From the NCBI GenBank assembly GCA_964515615.1, contig CAZEVI010000002.1:1-46301 (forward strand): 46,301 bases of DNA, written 5' to 3'. The first letter of the stretch is position 1. Every line of letters begins with the position of its first letter. This DNA comes from an uncultured Candidatus Saccharibacteria bacterium (GTDB lineage Bacteria > Patescibacteriota > UBA1384 > XYA2-FULL-43-10 > CAINNR01). Of this stretch, positions 8,671-20,735 are shown piece by piece. The position numbers and the translations under genes are program-made. The notes beneath the pieces are model-generated. The model did no database searches, was not told where the DNA came from, and was given only the letters and a program-made list of their open reading frames with translations.

Positions 8671-11600
8671 ATGGCAGTAAAAACCGAGCTGAGAAATGAA
8701 CGACTTTCAGCGAAAAAAGACCCTGTTGCCGCACCGCTTCCAAACCTAATTGAGGTGCAGACAAAATCATACGACTGGTTTTTCTCCGAGGGATTGCGGG
8801 AATTATTTGATGAAATTTCGCCAATCGACGATTTCACCGGCGAAGTGATGTCGCTATCGTTCGGCGATTACCAACTTGGCGAACCGAAAGTTAGTGAGGC
8901 AGTGGCCAGAGATAAAAATTTGACCTACAAGTCTCCGTTAAAAGTTCGGATCTCTCTTTTGAATAAAAAAACCGATGAAATTAAAGAAGCCGATGTTTTT
9001 ATTGGTGATTTTCCAATTATGACCCACAGGGGAACATTCATTATCAATGGCGTCGAACGGGTTATTGTTTCGCAAATTGTTCGCTCCTATGGCGTTCTTT
9101 TTACTGCCAACGAAGTCTCGGGCAGAAAACTTTTTGGCGCCAAAATTATTCCGTCTCGCGGTGCTTGGCTGGAGATTGAAACTGATCTTAAAAATGTGAT
9201 CTCAGTCAAAATTGATCGTAAACGACGAATTCCGGTAACTACTTTTTTACGGGCTTTGGGTATTAGCAGCGACGAGGAAATTAAAGCACTTTTCGCCGAT
9301 GTTGACACTGATGATGAAAATCACTACATTGAGGCAACAATCAAAAAAGATTCGGCCAAAAATTATGAAGAAGGACTGGTTGAAACATATAAAAAAATTC
9401 GGCCGGGTGATTTGGCAACAGTTGAAAGTGCCAAGTCTTTTATTGAAGCAATGTTTTTTAATCTTAAACGCTATGACATTGGTCGTGTTGGCCGATACAA
9501 AATTAATGCCCGTCTGAAAGTTGATACTGAAAATATTCCGGAAAATCGCGTTCTTCTAAAAGAAGATTTCATAAATATTATTCGCGAGGTTATTGAGTTA
9601 AACAATAACCCATTGGCCGAGCCGGACGATACTGACAGTTTGAAAAACCGCCGAATTAGAGCGGTTGGCGAACTAATTCAAGGTCGTGTTCGAGTTGGGC
9701 TTTTGAGAATTGAAAGAATTGTTAAAGATCGAATGAGTATATACGAGCCCGAAGATGCAACCCCGGCGCAATTAATTAATTCACGCCCAATTGTTGCCGC
9801 ACTTCAGGAATTTTTTGCATCCTCGCAAATGTCGCAATTTATGAATCAAACCAATCCGCTTTCTGAGCTCGAACACAAACGAACTCTTTCAGCTACCGGC
9901 CCCGGGGGACTTTCGCGTGAACGTGCCGGTTTTGAAGTTCGCGATGTTCATACTACCCACTATGGCCGTATCTGCCCGATTGAAACACCAGAAGGACCCA
10001 ACATTGGTTTGGTCGGCTATTTAGCATCATATGCGAAAATTAATGATTATGGTTTTATTGAGACTCCGTATCGAAAAGTTATCAGTGAAAATGGAAAACC
10101 AAAAGTTACCAACGACGTCGTCTATTTAGACGCATCAAAAGAAGAAAACACCACTATCGCTCCGGCCTCGGTTGAGGTTGATGAAAACGATTATATTAAA
10201 GATAAGAAAGTTATTGTTCGACATGGCGGAGAGCCGACAATCGCTGATGCTTCAACTGTTGAATATATGGACGTTTCTCCAAAACAGATTATTTCTGTTA
10301 CCGCCGCACTAATTCCATTTATTGAGCATGATGATGCTGCTCGTGCGTTGATGGGTGCCAATATGCAACGTCAGGCTGTCCCGTTGATTGCACCGCAATC
10401 AGCAATTGTCGGTACCGGTATGGAAAGTGCCGCCGCCAGGGATTCCGGCCAAATCATTTTAGCTCAAGTTGCCGGAAAAGTTACTCATGTGTCGTCAAAT
10501 CTGATTCGCGTAGAAGAATCAGACAAAAAAGTCCGTGATTATGTACTTTCCAAATTTGTTCGTTCAAATCAGGGAACGGTAATTAACCACGCTCCTCGAG
10601 TTGATGTTGGTGATTCCGTTCATCAAGGAGATCTTTTGGCTGATGGCTCAGCAACTCAAGACGGTGAAATTGCTCTTGGTAGAAATTTGAAAGTTGCTTT
10701 TATGTCTTGGGGCGGCGGAAACTACGAAGATGCTATCATCATCTCGTCAAAACTGGTCAAAGAGCATGTTCTTTCGTCAATTCATATTGAAAAATATATT
10801 TTGGAAGTCCGCGATACTAAACTCGGACCTGAAATTTTAACCCGCGATATTCCGAACGTTTCCGAAGAAGCGCTATCGAACCTCGATGAAAACGGCATAA
10901 TCCGCGTTGGTGCTGAGATAACCTCCGGCGACATTTTGGTTGGTAAAATTTCCCCCAAAGGAGAAACCGAACTTTCAGCTGAAGAAAAATTACTCCGAGC
11001 AATCTTTGGTGAAAAAGCCAAAGATGTTCGTGATTCAAGTTTGCGACTACCCCACGGAGAACGTGGAAAAATTGTTGAGGTCAAAATTTTCTCTCGTGAA
11101 TCCGGTGATGAGCTTCCGGCCGGTGTTTACCAAATGGTCGAAGTTTCTGTTGCTCAACTACGAAAAATTTCCGTTGGCGATAAGCTTGCCGGCCGGCATG
11201 GTAACAAAGGTGTTATCTCAACAATTTTACCGGAAGAAGATATGCCGTTTTTGCCCGATGGTACTCCAGTTGACATCATTCTGAATCCGCTGGGTGTTCC
11301 TTCTCGAATGAATATTGGCCAGCTGTTTGAAACTCATTTAGGCTGGGCAATGGACGAACAAAGTCGAAAGGTCGCCTCGGCGGCACTTGACGGTGTTAAA
11401 CTTGATGAAATTCGTCAGGAACTGAAAAAATCCGGTTTGCCGGAAGATGGGAAAATTCAGCTCTACGATGGCAAAACCGGCGAACCTTTTGATCACAGAA
11501 CCGTCGTTGGAATCATATATATAATGAAACTTTCCCATTTGGTAGATGATAAAATGCATGCACGGTCAATTGGTCCTTACTCAATGATTACCCAGCAGCC

Positions 11601-12021
11601 CCTTGGTGGTAAAGCTCAGTTTGGCGGTCAAAGATTTGGCGAAATGGAAGTTTGGGCAATTGAAGCTTACGGCGCGGCAAATATTCTACAAGAACTTCTA
11701 ACAATTAAATCCGATGATGTTATCGGCCGTAGTCGAGCCTACGAATCAATTATCAAAGGTGAACCGATTCAAAACCCGACAATTCCCGAGGCATTTAATC
11801 TGTTAATCAAAGAGATGCAAGCGCTGGGAATTAAAGTCGAGTTAGTTGCCGACGAAAATGTTGTTAAAGCTTCCCCTGAATTTGATGAAAAAGTTGTTGC
11901 ACGTTTGCCGGAGGCCGAAAAAGAATTGGATGAAGAAATTGATGAAAAGTTAACCGAATTGGTAGCCGAGCAAGTTTCCGAAGACGAAGACATTGTTTCA
12001 GATGAAGTCGATGACGAGTAA
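8671..12021 (+). CDS. rpoB: DNA-directed RNA polymerase subunit beta
   Basis: 1116-aa uninterrupted ORF; [13 protein letters not shown] and other beta-subunit blocks; SD AAAGGAGAG; acidic C-terminal tail. Confidence 0.97.
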
Positions 12022-12080: not shown

Positions 12081-15000
12081 ATGCCAAATTTAGAAGTCAA
12101 AGATGCGGTCAACGTTTTGGACTTCAAATCGATGCGGATTTCTGTTGCATCGCCGGAAGATATTCTCTCGTGGTCGCACGGAGAGGTACTAAAACCGGAA
12201 ACAATCAATTACCGAACCCAAAAACCGGAAAGAGACGGCCTTTTTGCGGAAAACATTTTTGGCCCGACTCGAGACTGGGAATGTTATTGTGGTAAATATC
12301 GCAAAGTCCGCTACTCCGGAGTTGTTTGCGATAAATGCGGCGTGGAAGTTACCAAATCATCGGTGCGCCGAATTCGAATGGGACATATTGATCTGGTTGT
12401 CCCGATTGCTCACATTTGGTATGTTCGGAGCGTTCCGTGCATAATGGGACAAATTCTCGATCTTTCATCGTCCGATTTGGAAAAAGTGATCTATTTTGCC
12501 AGTTTTGTAGTTGTTGATGTCAATGAAAATCTTCGACAAGAAACTCTAAATCGGATCGAGGAGGAATTTACCAATCTCAAAGAGGAAAAAATTTCCTCTG
12601 CCGACGCTACCGTTTCTCAAGCATCAAAAGATATCTCCACCGAGGAGATCAATGCCGCTTATAAAACAGCCAAACAGGAATTGGAAACACTGAAAATCGG
12701 TAATATTATTTCTGAGCGTGAATATTATAATTTATCCCACCGTTACAGCAATTTAGTTCGAGTTGGAATTGGCGCCGAAGCGATTTTGGAACTTCTGGAA
12801 AAAATTGATTTGGATGCCGAAATCAAAAAACTCGAAGATGAAGCCACATCAATCGTCGGAATTCAGAAACGAAAAATTATCAAAAGAATTCGAACGCTTC
12901 AAGGATTAAAAGCTGCCAATTTGAAACCTGATTGGCTGGTGCTTCGTCGGTTGCCGGTTATCCCGCCAGACCTTCGTCCAATGGTTCAGCTGGATGGCGG
13001 TCGTTTTGCAGCTTCAGATTTAAATGATTTGTATCGTCGAGTAATTAATAGAAATAATCGCCTGAAAAGACTGATCAATCAGGGTGCACCGGAAGTCATC
13101 TGCCGAAATGAGAAAAGAATGCTTCAGGAAGCAGTCGATGCTCTAATTGATAATTCTGCTCGTCGCGGCCGTGCAACCACCACTGCCAACAATCGCCGAA
13201 AACTGAAATCACTTTCTGATATGCTTCGTGGCAAACAGGGCCGATTTCGACAAAATCTTTTGGGTAAAAGAGTTGACTATTCCGGTCGTTCGGTTATTGT
13301 AGTTGGTCCGGAGTTAAAACTTCATCAGTGCGGTTTGCCGAAAGTTATGGCGATTGAGCTTTTTAAGCCGTTTGTTATTGGTCGCTTAATTTCTGAAGGG
13401 TATGTTCACAATGTCAAAAATGCGACACGCTTAATTGATAAAAATGAACCATTTGTTTGGGATATTCTTGAAGATATTACCAAAGATTCCTATATTCTCT
13501 TGAACCGTGCGCCGACACTCCACCGTTTAGGAATTCAAGCTTTTCAACCGGTTTTAATTGAAGGCAAAGCAATCAAAATTCACCCATTGGTTTGTCCGGC
13601 TTTCAATGCTGACTTCGATGGTGACCAAATGGCTGTTCATCTTCCGCTGTCAGTCGAAGCTCAACGTGAGGCAAGTGAGATTATGCTTTCTCGCAAAAAT
13701 CTATTAAAGCCTTCATCCGGCGAACCGGTTATTTCACCAACTCTTGATATGATTTTAGGCTGCTATTTTTTGACCACTCTCGGTGATGGTCGAAAAGGCG
13801 AAGGTAAAGTTTTTGCTTCCAAAAACGAATCACTGCTGGCATATGATTCAAAAATTGTTGATTTGAAAGCCAAGATTAAAGTAAAAATTGATGGTCAAAT
13901 TTTGGAAACATCTGTCGGACGAATTATCTTTAATGGTATTATCCCCGAGGAGCTTGGTTTTAGAAATCAAGATTTTGACAAAGTCAGTATTGCAAAACTA
14001 ATTGCTGAGTCTTCCAAAAAAGCCGGTCTAGACCGAACGGCTTCTTTTGTCGACAACATTAAAGAACTTGGATTTGAATATTCACAAATGTCGGGAATCA
14101 CCTTTTCAGCTTTTGATATTCAAGTTCCGCCGCAAAAAGCAGCAATTTTGGCAAATGCTGAAAGCCAATTGGAAGTTATCAACCAACAATATCGCCGCGG
14201 TCTTATCACTGAAGACGAAAGATATGCCAAAACGGTCGAAATCTGGATGAATGCTCAAGGTGAACTTCAAGGCGCAATGTTAGCGAATTTTGATAAAGAT
14301 AACGATATTAATATTATCCGGACTTCTGGTGCTCAGGGAAAAGTTTCACAGTTAAATCAGCTGGCCGGTATGAAAGGACTTGTTGCCGATCCGACAGGAA
14401 ATATTATCGAGCTACCAATAAAATCAAACTTCAAAGAAGGTTTGTCGGTTTTTGAATATTTTGTCTCCTCTCACGGTTCGAGAAAAGGCCGAGCAGATAC
14501 CGCACTTCGAACATCGGAAGCCGGATATTTAACACGGCGACTGGTTGATGTTTCACAGGACACGGTCGTTACTGGAAACGATTGCGGAACTGAAAATGGC
14601 GTGGTGATCGATAAAGATTTTTATGAATCAATTAATGACGACTGGACGAAACATTTAATCAGCCGAGTGTTAAATAAAGAAACAGCCGGATTCCCGAGAA
14701 ACACAATGATTGATATTTCTACTTTGGAAAAAATTGTTGCTTCCGGAATTAAGCAAGTTGAAATTCGCTCTCTTTTAACCTGTGAGCAACATTGGGGTAT
14801 CTGCCAACTTTGTTATGGTGAAGACCTATCAACCGGGAATTTGGTTGAAATTGGCTCGGCGGTTGGAATTGTCGCCGCACAGGCTATTGGCGAGCCGGGT
14901 ACACAGTTGACCATGCGAACTTTCCACACCGGTGGTGCGGCTGGAATTGACATTACCTCCGGTTTGCCGCGAGTCGGTGAACTTTTTGAAGCTCGGACTC

Positions 15001-15833
15001 CGCGGTCGATCGCAATTATGTCGGAGATTGACGGCAAAGTCGGCATTCGAAAAGAGAAGAACAAAAATATTATCTCAGTAGTCGGTCGCGGACACAAAGA
15101 AAGTAGCTATCAAATTCCCGAAGGTTATAAACTGGCTGTTAAAAATGGCGAACTTGTCAAATCGAAACAAATTATCGCCGCTTTGGCAGAGGAAAATGGT
15201 CAGCCAATCCGTTCAAAATCAGCCGGTGCTGTTGCAATCAACAACGATGAAGTGAAAATTGTTACCAAAGGAAAAACCGTTAAAGAGTACGTTGTTTCGG
15301 AGATGGTTGGATTAAAAATTATGGACGGCGACGAAATTAAAAAAGGCCAAGTTTTGACCGAAGGTCATGTCGATTTGCAATCATCTAGAGAACTTGCCGG
15401 CAAAGATTTTACTCAACGCTACATTATGACTGAAGTTCAGAAAATTTATGCTTCACAGGGACAGGACATTAACGATAAGCATTTGGAGGTAATTGTTCGC
15501 AAAATGAGTTCCAAAGCTCGTATTGTTGAGCCCGGCGACAGCGATTATCTCGAGGGTTCAATTTATGACATTAGCGCAATTAAAATTAAGAATAATCAAT
15601 TGACAGCTAGCAGAAAAAAACCGATCGAATATACGGAAGTTATAATGGCGATTACCAGAGTTGCTTTGAAAACTGAAAGTTTTCTCTCGGCTGCCTCATT
15701 CATGGAAACGACATCAATTCTCATTAACGCCGCTATTACCGGAGCGACTGACAATCTGCACGGCTTGAAAGAAAATGTTATTATCGGCCGTTTAATTCCA
15801 GCTGGTACCGGTTATCGCGAAATTGAAAGGTAG
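12081..15833 (+). CDS. rpoC: DNA-directed RNA polymerase subunit beta-prime
   Basis: 1250-aa ORF; catalytic NADFDGDQM; N-terminal Zn cysteines CYCGKY...CDKCG; SD AAGGAG. Confidence 0.97.
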   Translation: MPNLEVKDAVNVLDFKSMRISVASPEDILSWSHGEVLKPETINYRTQKPERDGLFAENIFGPTRDWECYCGKYRKVRYSGVVCDKCGVEVTKSSVRRIRMGHIDLVVPIAHIWYVRSVPCIMGQILDLSSSDLEKVIYFASFVVVDVNENLRQETLNRIEEEFTNLKEEKISSADATVSQASKDISTEEINAAYKTAKQELETLKIGNIISEREYYNLSHRYSNLVRVGIGAEAILELLEKIDLDAEIKKLEDEATSIVGIQKRKIIKRIRTLQGLKAANLKPDWLVLRRLPVIPPDLRPMVQLDGGRFAASDLNDLYRRVINRNNRLKRLINQGAPEVICRNEKRMLQEAVDALIDNSARRGRATTTANNRRKLKSLSDMLRGKQGRFRQNLLGKRVDYSGRSVIVVGPELKLHQCGLPKVMAIELFKPFVIGRLISEGYVHNVKNATRLIDKNEPFVWDILEDITKDSYILLNRAPTLHRLGIQAFQPVLIEGKAIKIHPLVCPAFNADFDGDQMAVHLPLSVEAQREASEIMLSRKNLLKPSSGEPVISPTLDMILGCYFLTTLGDGRKGEGKVFASKNESLLAYDSKIVDLKAKIKVKIDGQILETSVGRIIFNGIIPEELGFRNQDFDKVSIAKLIAESSKKAGLDRTASFVDNIKELGFEYSQMSGITFSAFDIQVPPQKAAILANAESQLEVINQQYRRGLITEDERYAKTVEIWMNAQGELQGAMLANFDKDNDINIIRTSGAQGKVSQLNQLAGMKGLVADPTGNIIELPIKSNFKEGLSVFEYFVSSHGSRKGRADTALRTSEAGYLTRRLVDVSQDTVVTGNDCGTENGVVIDKDFYESINDDWTKHLISRVLNKETAGFPRNTMIDISTLEKIVASGIKQVEIRSLLTCEQHWGICQLCYGEDLSTGNLVEIGSAVGIVAAQAIGEPGTQLTMRTFHTGGAAGIDITSGLPRVGELFEARTPRSIAIMSEIDGKVGIRKEKNKNIISVVGRGHKESSYQIPEGYKLAVKNGELVKSKQIIAALAEENGQPIRSKSAGAVAINNDEVKIVTKGKTVKEYVVSEMVGLKIMDGDEIKKGQVLTEGHVDLQSSRELAGKDFTQRYIMTEVQKIYASQGQDINDKHLEVIVRKMSSKARIVEPGDSDYLEGSIYDISAIKIKNNQLTASRKKPIEYTEVIMAITRVALKTESFLSAASFMETTSILINAAITGATDNLHGLKENVIIGRLIPAGTGYREIER

Positions 15834-15933: not shown

Positions 15934-16353
15934 TTGCCAACAATAAATCAATTAGTCAGACACGGCCGGAAAAAACCGGTTAACAAATCAAAAACAACAG
16001 CGCTGAAACGCGGTTTCAATTTTTTGAAAAATCGTCCTGTTGAGATTAAAAAAGGCTGCCCGCAAAAACGGGGAGTTTGTGTTAAAGTTTCGACAATGAC
16101 ACCCAAAAAACCAAATTCAGCCTTGCGAAAATTTGCCCGTGTCAGATTGACTAATGGCATGGAAGTTAACGCCTACATCGGCGGCGAAGGCCACACATTG
16201 CAGGAACACTCGGTGGTAATACTTCGCGGCGGACGAGTGAAAGATTTACCGGGTATGCGTTACCACATTATTCGCGGTAAGCTCGATTTGGCCGGGGTCA
16301 AAGACCGCAAACAAGGTCGCAGCAAATATGGATTGAAGAAAGGCAAAGAGTAG
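15934..16353 (+). CDS. rpsL: 30S ribosomal protein S12
   Basis: [12 protein letters not shown]-terminus, [10 protein letters not shown] motif; TTG start. Confidence 0.97.
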
Positions 16354-16479: not shown

Positions 16480-16956
16480 ATGTCCAGAGGTCATCAAAAA
16501 CTTAAAAATCATCAACTTAAACCAGATCGAAAATATGGCAGTGTTTTGGTAACCAAATTTACCAACTACATAATGCAATGCGGCAAAAAAACTGTTGCTG
16601 AAAATATAATTTATTCAGCGCTGAAGAACTCATCAAAGAAACTGGGTGCTGAACCGCTAGATGTTTTAGAACGAATGATTAAAAATGTTGGCCCACTTTT
16701 GGAAGTTAAAGCCAAGCGAATCGGTGGCGCCAACTATCAGATCCCAATGGAGGTGAATCGTGAGCGAAAAGAAACTTTAACTCTTCGTTGGGTGCTTTCT
16801 GCCGCCAAGTCGCGAAAGGGCGCTCCAATGGCCGAAAAACTATCCCTTGAATTAATTGACGCCTGTAATAATACCGGTGCCGCTGTTAAGAAGAAAGAAG
16901 ACACTCACCGGATGGCTGAAGCAAACAAAGCCTTCGCCCACTTTGCTCGATTATAA
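16480..16956 (+). CDS. rpsG: 30S ribosomal protein S7
   Basis: 158 aa; S7 blocks (PDRKYGS, GGANYQIPMEV, AFAHFA). Confidence 0.97.
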   Translation: MSRGHQKLKNHQLKPDRKYGSVLVTKFTNYIMQCGKKTVAENIIYSALKNSSKKLGAEPLDVLERMIKNVGPLLEVKAKRIGGANYQIPMEVNRERKETLTLRWVLSAAKSRKGAPMAEKLSLELIDACNNTGAAVKKKEDTHRMAEANKAFAHFARL

Positions 16957-17021
16957 TCAACTGTCATCAACTTGCTGTGGCTTGAACGACAAAGCCTTCG
17001 CCCACTTTGCTCGATTATAAT
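16925..17021 (+). repeat. 33-bp perfect direct repeat (16925-16957 and 16989-17021) duplicating the rpsG 3' end including its TAA
   Basis: ACAAAGCCTTCGCCCACTTTGCTCGATTATAAT read twice, 31 bp apart. Confidence 0.95.
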
Positions 17022-17053: not shown

Positions 17054-17100
17054 AATTACTGATTTGGCGCGATCGCGCCAAATCAGTAATTTTTTATTTG
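17054..17100 (+). terminator. Strong rho-independent terminator after rpsG: 38-bp perfect palindrome plus T-run
   Basis: AATTACTGATTTGGCGCGA/TCGCGCCAAATCAGTAATT (17054-17091), followed by TTTTATTT. Confidence 0.8.
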
Positions 17101-17271
17101 CCGAAGAATTGTCAGGTGGGGTAAATACAAAAAACATTTGTTTTGAAATGATCGCGCGCAACTTGCAGTTGCCACTTGAAAGTTATTTTCTTCTGGATTC
17201 AATAATTTACAAATCTTTGTCGGCCATTCAGTATTGGGATCAATAATTAAAATTCTTTTTGGAGTTGGCAT
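17083..17271 (-). CDS. Small hypothetical ORF (62 aa) whose stop lies inside the palindromic terminator
   Basis: SD AAGGAG (17281-17286) 9 nt before ATG 17271; own promoter; TGA stop within the palindrome arm. Confidence 0.4.
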   Translation of the reverse strand: MPTPKRILIIDPNTEWPTKICKLLNPEENNFQVATASCARSFQNKCFLYLPHLTILRQIKNY

Positions 17272-17308
17272 TGAAACCATCTCCTTTTCTTATTTTGTAC
17301 TCACAACG

Positions 17309-17395: not shown

Positions 17396-17421
17396 TAAAA
17401 AACCCAACTTTGAGGTTGGGT
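17396..17421 (-). terminator. Rho-independent terminator of the interrupted island gene
   Basis: ACCCAAC-TTTGAG-GTTGGGT (17402-17421) with a minus-strand T-run (plus-strand A-run 17397-17401), 8 nt after the TAG at 17430-17432. Confidence 0.7.
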
Positions 17422-17432
17422 GTGTGGCTCTA

Positions 17433-18388
17433 TTTGGTTCGTGGCCAAATATCGGAATCGTCAAATCTGATTGCGCCTTTTGCCCCTGGGTTTATCCCCA
17501 AATCTTCGACAAGTTCGATGAAAGGTCCCCAAGTCATGCCTATTAATTTTGTCGTATAGACTTTGCGACTTTCCCATGGACCCAGCGCAATTGAGTGGAT
17601 GATCTTGCAAGCACCTAGACCAAATCTCCAGCTTTGAAAAAGTCCTGCGGACGCTTTGTTACTTTGGGTCCTATTTTCTCTGGTGGGCTAGATATTTGAT
17701 GAAAATAAGAGAAAAGGTTAGGGTGTAATTGAATTACCATCGTGTTGTTATTAATACTTTCAGAAATTTCCGTAGTCCCGTGCATGGAATTTAAATTTGC
17801 TGCATAAAATAATCTCACATCACGGTTGAAATCAAAACCCTCGGCTTTTTCATGAGAGTAAATTTGACCATCGATATCGTATTTTGAACGTTTCTGATAA
17901 ATATTGGCTTTGTGGCCGTCACCATCTAATTTTCTAGAATCATTTTGATCAGGCACGATGAAGAATCCATTTTCGGGCAAATCTGAAAAAGATACTGGCA
18001 ATGTTGGAAAATTTGGGAGTTCATTTCCAATAATTTCAATCCAATCAATTATGCGTGAGATGTCCATTAGCGAAAACAAATGGATAATAGTATCATCAAT
18101 CCTAATGACAATAGTATCATCTGAAAATTCAATGCTTTGGACTGCTGCATCCCCAGCGGTAAAGGGCGAATAGGCCGAATATTTGTCGCTCTTAACGGTG
18201 TCTCAAAGAGTGTCGATATTATCCAACTGCTCCATTGTTAATGTGCGACCAGCAGGAAGTTTCCGATAAATCTCAGTGCCAGTTTTGGTTCTGTTCGCAT
18301 TAAATTCGTTACCAACTTTGTTATCACTTCGGAAAACAATAAAGTAAGCCCCAAAGGGCAAATCAGCAAATGTCTGCAGTTTTCCCAT
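17433..18388 (-). pseudogene. Two-module hypothetical gene interrupted by an in-frame TGA (18203-18205) and a -1 frameshift (between 17615 and 17687)
   Basis: Track ORFs 18203-18397 and 17615-18079 share one frame, and that frame stays open between them except for one TGA. A third open frame (…GLFQSWRFGLGACKIIHSIALGPWESRKVYTTKLIGMTWGPFIELVEDLGINPGAKGAIRFDDSDIWPRTK*) has no start codon and ends just before the terminator. SD AAGGTG precedes ATG 18388. Confidence 0.6.
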
Positions 18389-18425
18389 CAGGATCACCTT
18401 GCGTTTATGATGTGCTCTAAAAAAG

Positions 18426-18659: not shown

Positions 18660-20735
18660 ATGCCCAGAGATTATTCACTTGAGAAAACCAGAAACATTGG
18701 AATTGCCGCTCACATTGATGCCGGAAAAACTACCGTTACCGAGCGGATTCTTTACTATACCGGTAAAAAGCATAAAATCGGTGAAGTTCATGAGGGTGCG
18801 GCAGAGATGGATTGGATGGAACAAGAAAAAGAGCGAGGGATTACCATTACTTCCGCCGCCACAACCTGTTTTTGGAAAGATACTCGAATTAACATTATCG
18901 ATACTCCTGGCCACGTTGATTTTACCGTCGAAGTCGAGCGGTCAATGCGTGTTCTTGATGGCGCTGTTGTCGTATTTGATGGTAAAAACGGCGTCGAACC
19001 TCAATCGGAAACGGTTTGGCGACAAGCCGACAAATACAGCGTTCCTCGAATTTGTTTTGTCAATAAACTTGATGCAATTGCCGGCGATTTTTATATGAGC
19101 TTTAATTCAATTATTGATCGTTTGCGAGCCAACGCTGTCGCAATGCAACTGCCAATTGGCAAAGAAAGCGATCTATGCGGTGTAGTAGATTTGATGGATC
19201 AAAAAGCCTATATTTATTCAACAGATGATTTGGGCAAAACTTACGAAATTCAAGATGTTCCAGAAGATATGAAAACCGATGTTAAGAAATGGCGCGCCGA
19301 AATGATTGAGAAAATTGTTGAAACTGATGATACGTTATTGGAAAAATATTTGCTTGGCGAAGAGCCGACAGTTTCTGAACTAAAAGCAGCCACCAGAGTG
19401 GCAACAATTGCCGGAAAGCTTTATCCGGTTTTTGCCGGCACCGCACTGAAAAATAAGGGGATCCAACCGTTGCTTGATGCCGCAGTTGATTATCTACCTT
19501 CTCCACTCGATGTCCCGGCTCCGAAAGCTACTATGGTTGGATCAGACGAAGAAATTGAAATAAAAGTTGATGATAATGGGCCTTTTGTGTCGTTAGCATT
19601 TAAAATTGCCGCTGATCCGTTTGTTGGCAAATTGACCTTTTTCCGAGTTTATTCCGGCAAATTATCATCTGGAAGCTATGTTACCAATACCAGATCGGGA
19701 GAAAAAGAACGAGTCGGCCGAATTTTGCGGATGCACGCCAATCATCGTGAAGATGTAACCGAGGTTTATTCCGGTGAAATTGCGGCCGCTGTCGGATTAA
19801 AAGCCACTATCACCGGTGATACTCTTTGCGAAGTTGGTCAAAAATATATTCTCGAACAAATTACATTTCCAGAACCGGTTATTTCAATCGCGATCGAACC
19901 GAAAACCAAAGCCGATCAGGAAAAAATGGGTATTGCCCTCCAGAGATTATCCGAGGAAGACCCAACTTTTTGTGTTCATACCGATGTCGATTCTGGTCAA
20001 ACTATCATTGAAGGAATGGGCGAATTACATTTGGAGATCATAGTCGATCGAATGAAACGCGAATTTAAAGTTGAGGCCAATATTGGCGCCCCACAAGTTG
20101 CTTACAAAGAGACAATTCGTGATTCTGTCGAACAGGAAGGAAAGTATATTCGACAATCCGGCGGTCGCGGCCAATACGGTCATGTATACTTGAAAATTGA
20201 ACCTAACGAAGAGGGTGCCGGTTTTGAATTTGTTAACAAAATTGTCGGCGGTGCTATTCCAAAAGAGTATATTCCAGCTGTTGAACAAGGTGTTAAAGAG
20301 GCAATGGGTAAAGGTGTTATCGCTGGCTATCCGGTTGTCGATACAAAGGTTACACTTTTTGATGGCACATACCACGAGGTCGATTCATCGGAGATGGCTT
20401 TCAAAATTGCGGCATCAGGGGCGTTTCAAGAAGGGTTTAAAAAAGCCAAGCCGGTAATACTTGAACCAATTATGAAGGTAGAAGTTACCATCCCCGAAGA
20501 ATATACTGGGGATGTTGTTGGCGATTTGAATTCTCGCCGTGGCCAAATTGGCGATATGATCGATCGTGCCGGGGCCAAAGTCATTGACTGCCAAGTCCCC
20601 TTGGCATCGATGTTTGGCTACGCCACAACACTGCGCAGTATGACACAAGGCCGAGGCAACTATTCTATGGAATTCGATCACTACGCTGAAGTTCCAAACA
20701 ATGTTGCGGCACAGATAATTGAAGGTAAAAAATAA
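18660..20735 (+). CDS. fusA: Elongation factor G
   Basis: 691 aa; [21 protein letters not shown]; EF-G domains IV/V. Confidence 0.97.

Follow-up and report, generated by a model that had tools for sequence, protein, structure and literature searches.

Ordinary bacterial pseudogenes, genes decoded by −1 frameshifting such as dnaX and those of IS elements, the reassigned stop codons of CPR bacteria (code 25, in Gracilibacteria/Absconditabacteria) or of code 4 and, at the level of protein fold, the chromo-barrel/Tudor/Agenet domains of the 'Royal family' (e.g. MSL3) are the described systems closest to the interrupted gene, here called X, that lies in the 46,301-nt stretch of DNA analysed in this study (the window). 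With ordinary pseudogenes X shares stop codons created by point mutation and a lost base, as judged against intact orthologues in the same position, lesions that are fixed in the population, and neighbouring accessory genes that are shrinking or gone; it differs from them in nothing essential and would simply be young, with its signals intact. A-AAG is a slip-prone motif, slippage of Lys-tRNA being known from E. coli frameshifting, and X resembles dnaX and the IS elements in having A-AAG at its frame junction and a downstream frame devoid of a start; however, it lacks a tandem slippery heptamer, the shift is not conserved in its orthologues, and two stop codons stand upstream of the junction. 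The in-frame TGA of X, and its translation as Trp by gene callers, recall stop reassignment, but here ~12,000 codons of neighbouring genes are free of in-frame TGA, TGA terminates 5 of 45 genes, and the orthologue of X has Leu at the TGA position. To the 'Royal family' domains, the C-terminal domain of X is similar in its predicted barrel fold, yet it has no sequence-profile match in Pfam, NCBIfam or PDB. Our main reading, to which we assign a probability of roughly 90%, is that X, a copy of a rare and lineage-restricted accessory gene of Berkelbacteria-like CPR bacteria, became a pseudogene only recently. On this reading, the locus displays ordinary gene decay and not recoding.

The window has a G+C content of ~39%, and the stretch is present in many groundwater and aquifer metagenome runs; no RNA run was found among those containing it. 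Its genes follow the order rpoB (8671-12021), rpoC (12081-15833), rpsL (15934-16353) and rpsG (16480-16956) and, beyond a 1.7-kb gap, fusA (18660-20735), tuf, rpsJ and ribosomal protein genes. Within the gap between rpsG and fusA, X lies on the minus strand, in antisense orientation relative to the str operon, and extends from an ATG at 18388 to its original stop codon, TAG 17432-17430. The features to which we refer in the following are:

18394..18400, minus strand: Shine-Dalgarno (SD)-like AAGGTGA, 5 nt before the ATG (read from the sequence)
17430..18388, minus strand: probable pseudogene X, remains of a gene of ~320 codons (tblastn with P0003, E 1e-106)
18062..18379, minus strand: module 1, about residues 4-109 (TFADLPFGAYFIV...EIYRK...VIRI...LFSLMD; hhalign)
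18203..18205, minus strand: lesion 1, TGA in frame as codon 62, within a variable loop of module 1 (Leu62, TTA, in L001)
17681..17998, minus strand: module 2, about residues 131-236 (SFSDLPENGFFIV...NIYQK...VIQL...LFSYFHQ; hhalign)
17615..17617, minus strand: lesion 2, in-frame TAG in place of the GDxVW Trp, C-terminal domain (alignment and codon comparison)
17561..17566, minus strand: lesion 3, frame junction GCAAAG, which lacks one base in comparison with the orthologues (tblastn segments abut at 17564)
17433..17564, minus strand: last 44 codons of X, shifted out of frame (KVYTTKLIGMTWGPFIELVEDLGINPGAKGAIRFDDSDIWPRTK) and more conserved in the family than any other part (68% identical to P0003 residues 279-322)
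17402..17421, minus strand: intrinsic-terminator-like hairpin and T-run, 8 nt past the original stop (terminator scan)
17083..17280, minus strand: ORF of 62-65 codons downstream of X, possible receiver remnant (same position and orientation as the receivers of L001 and L014)

The frame opened by the ATG at 18388 runs for 61 codons to the TGA and then for another 195 codons to the TAG at 17617-17615, and a second minus-strand frame is open from 17687 to the TAG at 17430-17432 without a usable start. Inspection of the sequence revealed neither an SD motif nor a plausible start before the downstream pieces of X. The sequence-only reading that preceded our analysis had described a minus-strand frame from 18388 broken by TGA 18203-18205 and ending at TAG 17615-17617, an SD motif in front of it (the AAGGTGA at 18400-18394), a second part lacking both SD and start, and a startless second frame whose stop lies 8 nt before a terminator (17421-17402), all of which was borne out. 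The intact promoter of the sequence-only reading comes down to resemblance to the consensus: further upstream, a scan returned a promoter-like TTGACA-16-TATTTT at 18566-18539, and a TGG-TATATT extended −10-like site was recognised by eye nearer to the start of X.

The nature of the interruptions became apparent from the comparison with intact homologues. A protein search with the read-through translation of X led to P0003, an uninterrupted protein of 322 aa that is 56% identical over its full length. In tblastn alignments of P0003 to the window, residues 1-278 matched positions 18388-17564 in a single frame passing through both TGA and TAG (58% identity), and residues 279-322 matched positions 17564-17433 in the neighbouring frame (68% identity). 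The TAG stands in place of a Trp that all five homologues aligned here have in common and that is encoded by TGG in both L001 and L014, the two Berkelbacteria-type contigs that carry an intact X. As frame 0 continues to be homologous for 17 codons past the TAG (VLARSSTQLRWVHGKVA in the window versus ILLRSSDSLRWLPATIA in the orthologue), this stop codon constitutes a separate, third lesion. At the frame junction, the codons read GCA AAC GTT TAT in L001, GCA AGT GTC TTC in L014 and GCA AAG TCT ATA in the window. Each lesion is thus one single-base event away from the codon state of the orthologue (TTA, TGG and a full codon, respectively). The 44 codons that have been thrown out of frame include the columns GPFI..ED..G...R.D..IWPR, which are invariant in the family. 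The tblastn alignments with the intact orthologue led us to revise the sequence-only reading in two respects: it had counted two interruptions where there are three (TGA, TAG and one-base loss), and it had located the frame change in the 17615-17687 overlap, with its T5/A5 run at 17637-17641, whereas the real switch occurs at ~17564.

The intact versions of X comprise 322 aa in L001 (2417-3385) and 332 aa in L014 (6001-6999), and both are free of stops and frame changes at the three lesion sites. The homologue search and the inspection of orthologues proposed in the sequence-only reading have hence been carried out, with the outcome that X is uninterrupted at the same locus in two related genomes; orthologues in the form of separate short genes were not found, and the short database entries are either parts of this broken gene or products of gene calling with code 4 on short contigs. 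The gene order in L001 is rpoC, rpsL, rpsG, a 179-aa gene, two receiver-like genes, X, a 274-aa gene and fusA; in L014 it is rpoC, rpsL, rpsG, a receiver gene (161 aa), X, a 181-aa gene, fusA and tuf. In both contigs, X runs antisense to the str genes, and the gene that follows it in the same orientation codes for a CheY-like receiver; the receiver genes match Pfam Response_reg with E values of 5e-7 (L001) and 2e-6 (L014), and the extra island genes of 179, 274 and 181 aa have no Pfam match. The content of the rpsG-fusA island differs among the three genomes (L001 1471-4979, L014 5244-7569). In the window it consists of the broken X and a stub only, and the four L001 island genes other than X lack counterparts there. 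Housekeeping proteins are 84-93% identical among the three genomes and X is 46-60% identical, from which we conclude that X evolves fast.

The stub, an ORF of 62-65 codons, shows weak similarity to the receivers (KRILIIDPNTEW versus KKILVVDDEVRW, E 0.004; profile E 0.02-0.03). The likeness is confined to the first strand, KRILIIDPN, the ORF ending before the region of the phospho-acceptor Asp would be complete, and a Pfam search of the 62-65-aa product gave no match to Response_reg. Judged from its sequence and position, the ORF may be the truncated remnant of a CheY-like receiver gene.

Taken together, X carries in this population three independent single-nucleotide lesions, a TGA, a TAG and a one-base loss. 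Translation from the SD and ATG would then end after 61 residues, inside module 1, and a functional X product would not be made. The inactivation would be young, with SD, start, original stop and terminator still recognisable; a young age would explain why these signals, and ~60% identity to the nearest orthologue, have survived. The accessory island appears to have shrunk together with X, possibly leaving the receiver stub behind while the other island genes of the relatives vanished, and because the rest of the island has shrunk as well, the locus would be in the process of being lost by ordinary reductive decay. As a counterpoint, the promoter-like, SD and terminator signals have all been kept in X, without a large deletion, and transcription of X and synthesis of the 61-aa product might still take place. 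The sequence-only reading had left the choice between a freshly inactivated gene and a recoded one; the former option is supported by the uninterrupted syntenic orthologues in conjunction with lesions that are real in independent assemblies. In this sense, X illustrates, cleanly and on a small scale, how a CPR genome is losing a gene from an accessory island that splits the str operon.

The reality of the lesions deserves comment, since low coverage per run (word depth ~4-10) and the position of one lesion next to a short A run could be taken to mean that the true X is intact and that the stops and the indel are artefacts of assembly or consensus calling. The short contigs L005-L009, five in number and derived from other samples and other assemblers (JGI, ENA, Logan), align to the gap without any indel, and the five SNPs that set them apart from the window over 1.7 kb all lie outside the lesions; a contig from another metagenome (L015) shares the TAG and the frame break with the window and stops short of the TGA; and Logan contigs of eight runs display no insertions or deletions, with alternative letters only at 17932 and 17610. 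At the level of assembled contigs, which hide minority alleles and here represent a word depth of ~4-10 per run, the six other contigs and the contigs of the eight runs are thus identical to the window at every lesion covered, yet differ elsewhere by genuine SNPs, and two of the three lesions are substitutions. Lesions that recur identically in independent assemblies are not consensus errors of one assembly, so the six contigs and the contigs of eight runs rule out for practical purposes the artefact that the sequence-only reading had put forward as an alternative, and we regard its probability as negligible. Provided that the lesions are real, full-length X might still be produced by programmed recoding, that is, by read-through of UGA and UAG combined with a −1 slip at A-AAG (17561-17564). 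A slip of Lys-tRNA from AAG to AAA would restore an orthologue-like ...VAK-VYTT..., and the expression signals, the original stop and the terminator have all been kept, but this would demand that a single gene undergo three independent low-efficiency events, both orthologues are uninterrupted at all three sites, and a TAG at the position of an orthologue TGG Trp codon is the signature of a plain point mutation. The 45 confident ORFs of the window, ~12,000 codons including rpoB, rpoC, fusA and tuf, contain no in-frame stop, which indicates that the standard code holds; an in-frame TGA is likewise absent from the conserved genes of the window (rpoB, rpoC, fusA, tuf and the ribosomal protein genes), where an alternative code (TGA as Trp or Gly) or selenocysteine would lead one to expect it to recur. 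The 45 ORFs end with TAA (36), TGA (5) or TAG (4), making TGA and TAG ordinary stops in the neighbours of X, and no tRNA gene, hence no suppressor tRNA, was found within the window. Furthermore, the junction (C GCA AAG) lacks a tandem X XXY YYZ heptamer and offers a single-site A-AAG only, and any one-base loss in an A run leaves behind an A-AAG-like motif. With three lesions, uninterrupted orthologues and TGA and TAG serving as ordinary stops, the second option of the sequence-only reading, UGA read-through plus −1 slippage, is unsupported, and we consider recoding of X very improbable.

It is also conceivable that X has become a split gene, with the 61-aa N-terminal piece and/or an internal ORF of 150-154 aa (17615-18079, module 2 only) being made and useful. 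Both the 150-aa and the 61-aa ORF are called as genes in several public sources, the upstream expression signals of X are intact, and module 2 is complete within the 150-aa ORF. Nevertheless, the internal ATG/TTG is not preceded by an SD, the 61-aa piece amounts to only about half of module 1, and every intact family member, whether of the one- or two-module type, keeps the C-terminal domain, the lone apparent exception, P0014, looking broken as well. In addition, three of the four population SNPs inside the 150-aa ORF alter the protein. On balance, useful products of a split X appear improbable. The public 257-aa proteins P0002, P0006 and P0008 (contigs L005-L009) translate only if TGA is read as Trp, and all of them end at the TAG; these entries are evidently annotation artefacts caused by gene calling with another code (code 4) on short contigs. 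Annotation of the locus should read one pseudogene rather than two or three hypothetical proteins.

With X regarded as a pseudogene, the substitution patterns can be considered. Population SNPs in X are non-synonymous in 3-4 cases and synonymous in one, versus 1 non-synonymous and 4 synonymous in rpoC, rpsL, rpsG and fusA, a difference whose direction agrees with relaxed constraint but which is not significant with ~10 sites; the amino-acid replacements in X are K→E, L→F and I→V and, immediately past the TAG, L→H. In a three-taxon count, X had 37 unique amino-acid changes in the window versus 17 in L001 (binomial p 0.009). The same count for housekeeping genes yielded 124 versus 88, a ratio not different from that of X (Fisher p 0.21). 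We had entertained the relative-rate excess as a sign of relaxed constraint and dropped it, since it is indistinguishable from the lineage effect seen in the housekeeping genes. There is consequently no independent sign of long relaxed constraint, and the absence of a rate excess in X beyond that of the housekeeping genes fits a recent inactivation. A metagenome scan re-found only the lineage of the window itself and no closer relative with an intact X.

Before its inactivation, X would have encoded a protein of the same layout as its intact orthologues. The ancestral protein of ~320 aa comprises two tandem homologous modules of ~105 aa each, followed by a C-terminal small beta-barrel domain of ~80 aa. 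Comparison of hhalign profiles for modules 1 and 2, to which single-module relatives had been added, gave a probability of 97.6% (E 3e-12) over 102 columns. This substantiates the tandem homologous modules noted in the sequence-only reading, but not its view that the TGA separates them: with module 1 covering residues ~4-109 and the TGA at codon 62, the stop codon halves module 1 instead of lying between the modules. Among 1.84 billion clustered proteins, phmmer identified six family representatives; these include P0012, which corresponds to the 61-aa N-terminal piece of X in the window. The set did not grow when a profile was searched against 5.8 billion proteins. P0010 (196 aa), P0011 (185 aa) and P0013 (244 aa) consist of one module plus the C-terminal domain; two modules plus the C-terminal domain are present in L001, L014 and the window. 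Outside Berkelbacteria, the family gene is found in a different neighbourhood. Scans of the X pieces and of the intact homologues with Pfam, PHROGs, NCBIfam and PADLOC returned nothing meaningful. P0014 (137 aa, L012 280-693) matches the start of the L014 X with its first 129 residues before diverging and reaching a stop; it probably stems from a close relative of L014 in which the copy is frameshifted or has been misassembled, so that a broken copy may exist in a second lineage. The intact members worth studying are those of L001 and L014 together with P0010, P0011 and P0013, representing a very rare and uncharacterised family.

As to the function of intact X, structure prediction gives some hints. 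The AlphaFold model of a full-length orthologue is poor (mean pLDDT 59.7), and the Foldseek search based on it was uninformative. The C-terminal 81 residues alone were modelled with a pLDDT of 83.5 as a small beta-barrel of four to five strands; the sequence of this domain follows the pattern GDxVW...W.ATI..V. By probability, the leading Foldseek matches of the domain were chromo-barrel, Tudor and Agenet domains, with MSL3 first (probability 0.97-0.98, TM 0.55-0.60), followed by AGDP3, SAWADEE and Tip60, at E values of 0.1 or higher, and no Foldseek match of the C-terminal domain had an E value below 0.1; when a profile of the domain was compared with PDB sequences, the matches did not rise above chance level. 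The chromo-barrel/Tudor likeness of the model weakly suggests a resemblance in fold, as opposed to family membership. In Berkelbacteria-type loci, X is paired with the CheY-like receiver and inserted in antisense orientation into the rpsL-rpsG-fusA-tuf operon, which to our knowledge is otherwise universal. On this basis one might tentatively picture intact X as a cytoplasmic partner or output of the adjacent receiver that binds a macromolecule via its barrel domain. The more far-reaching idea that the intact family represents unannotated proteins built of one or two copies of a new ~105-aa module and a chromo-barrel/Tudor-like domain, serving as a signalling output on the transcription/translation machinery encoded around them, with the window displaying a recent loss, is in our view rather unlikely.

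Some minor sequence features of the region may be mentioned. The 3' end of rpsG, including its stop codon, is present as a perfect 33-bp direct duplication (16925-16957 and 16989-17021, with 31 bp in between) that is absent from the orthologous loci of L001 and L014; it may be the scar of a rearrangement or deletion that trimmed the island on the rpsG side. Beyond rpsG, a perfect 38-bp palindrome (19-nt arms, no loop) with a T-run, terminator-like in appearance, extends from 17054 to 17091 of the window, and one of its arms supplies the TGA stop of the minus-strand ORF of 62-65 codons. Within module 1, a 15-nt near-repeat (GATAATAGTATCATC / GACAATAGTATCATC, 24 nt apart; window 18083-18121) encodes DDTIVIRIDDTII, which in the protein amounts to a small internal duplication.
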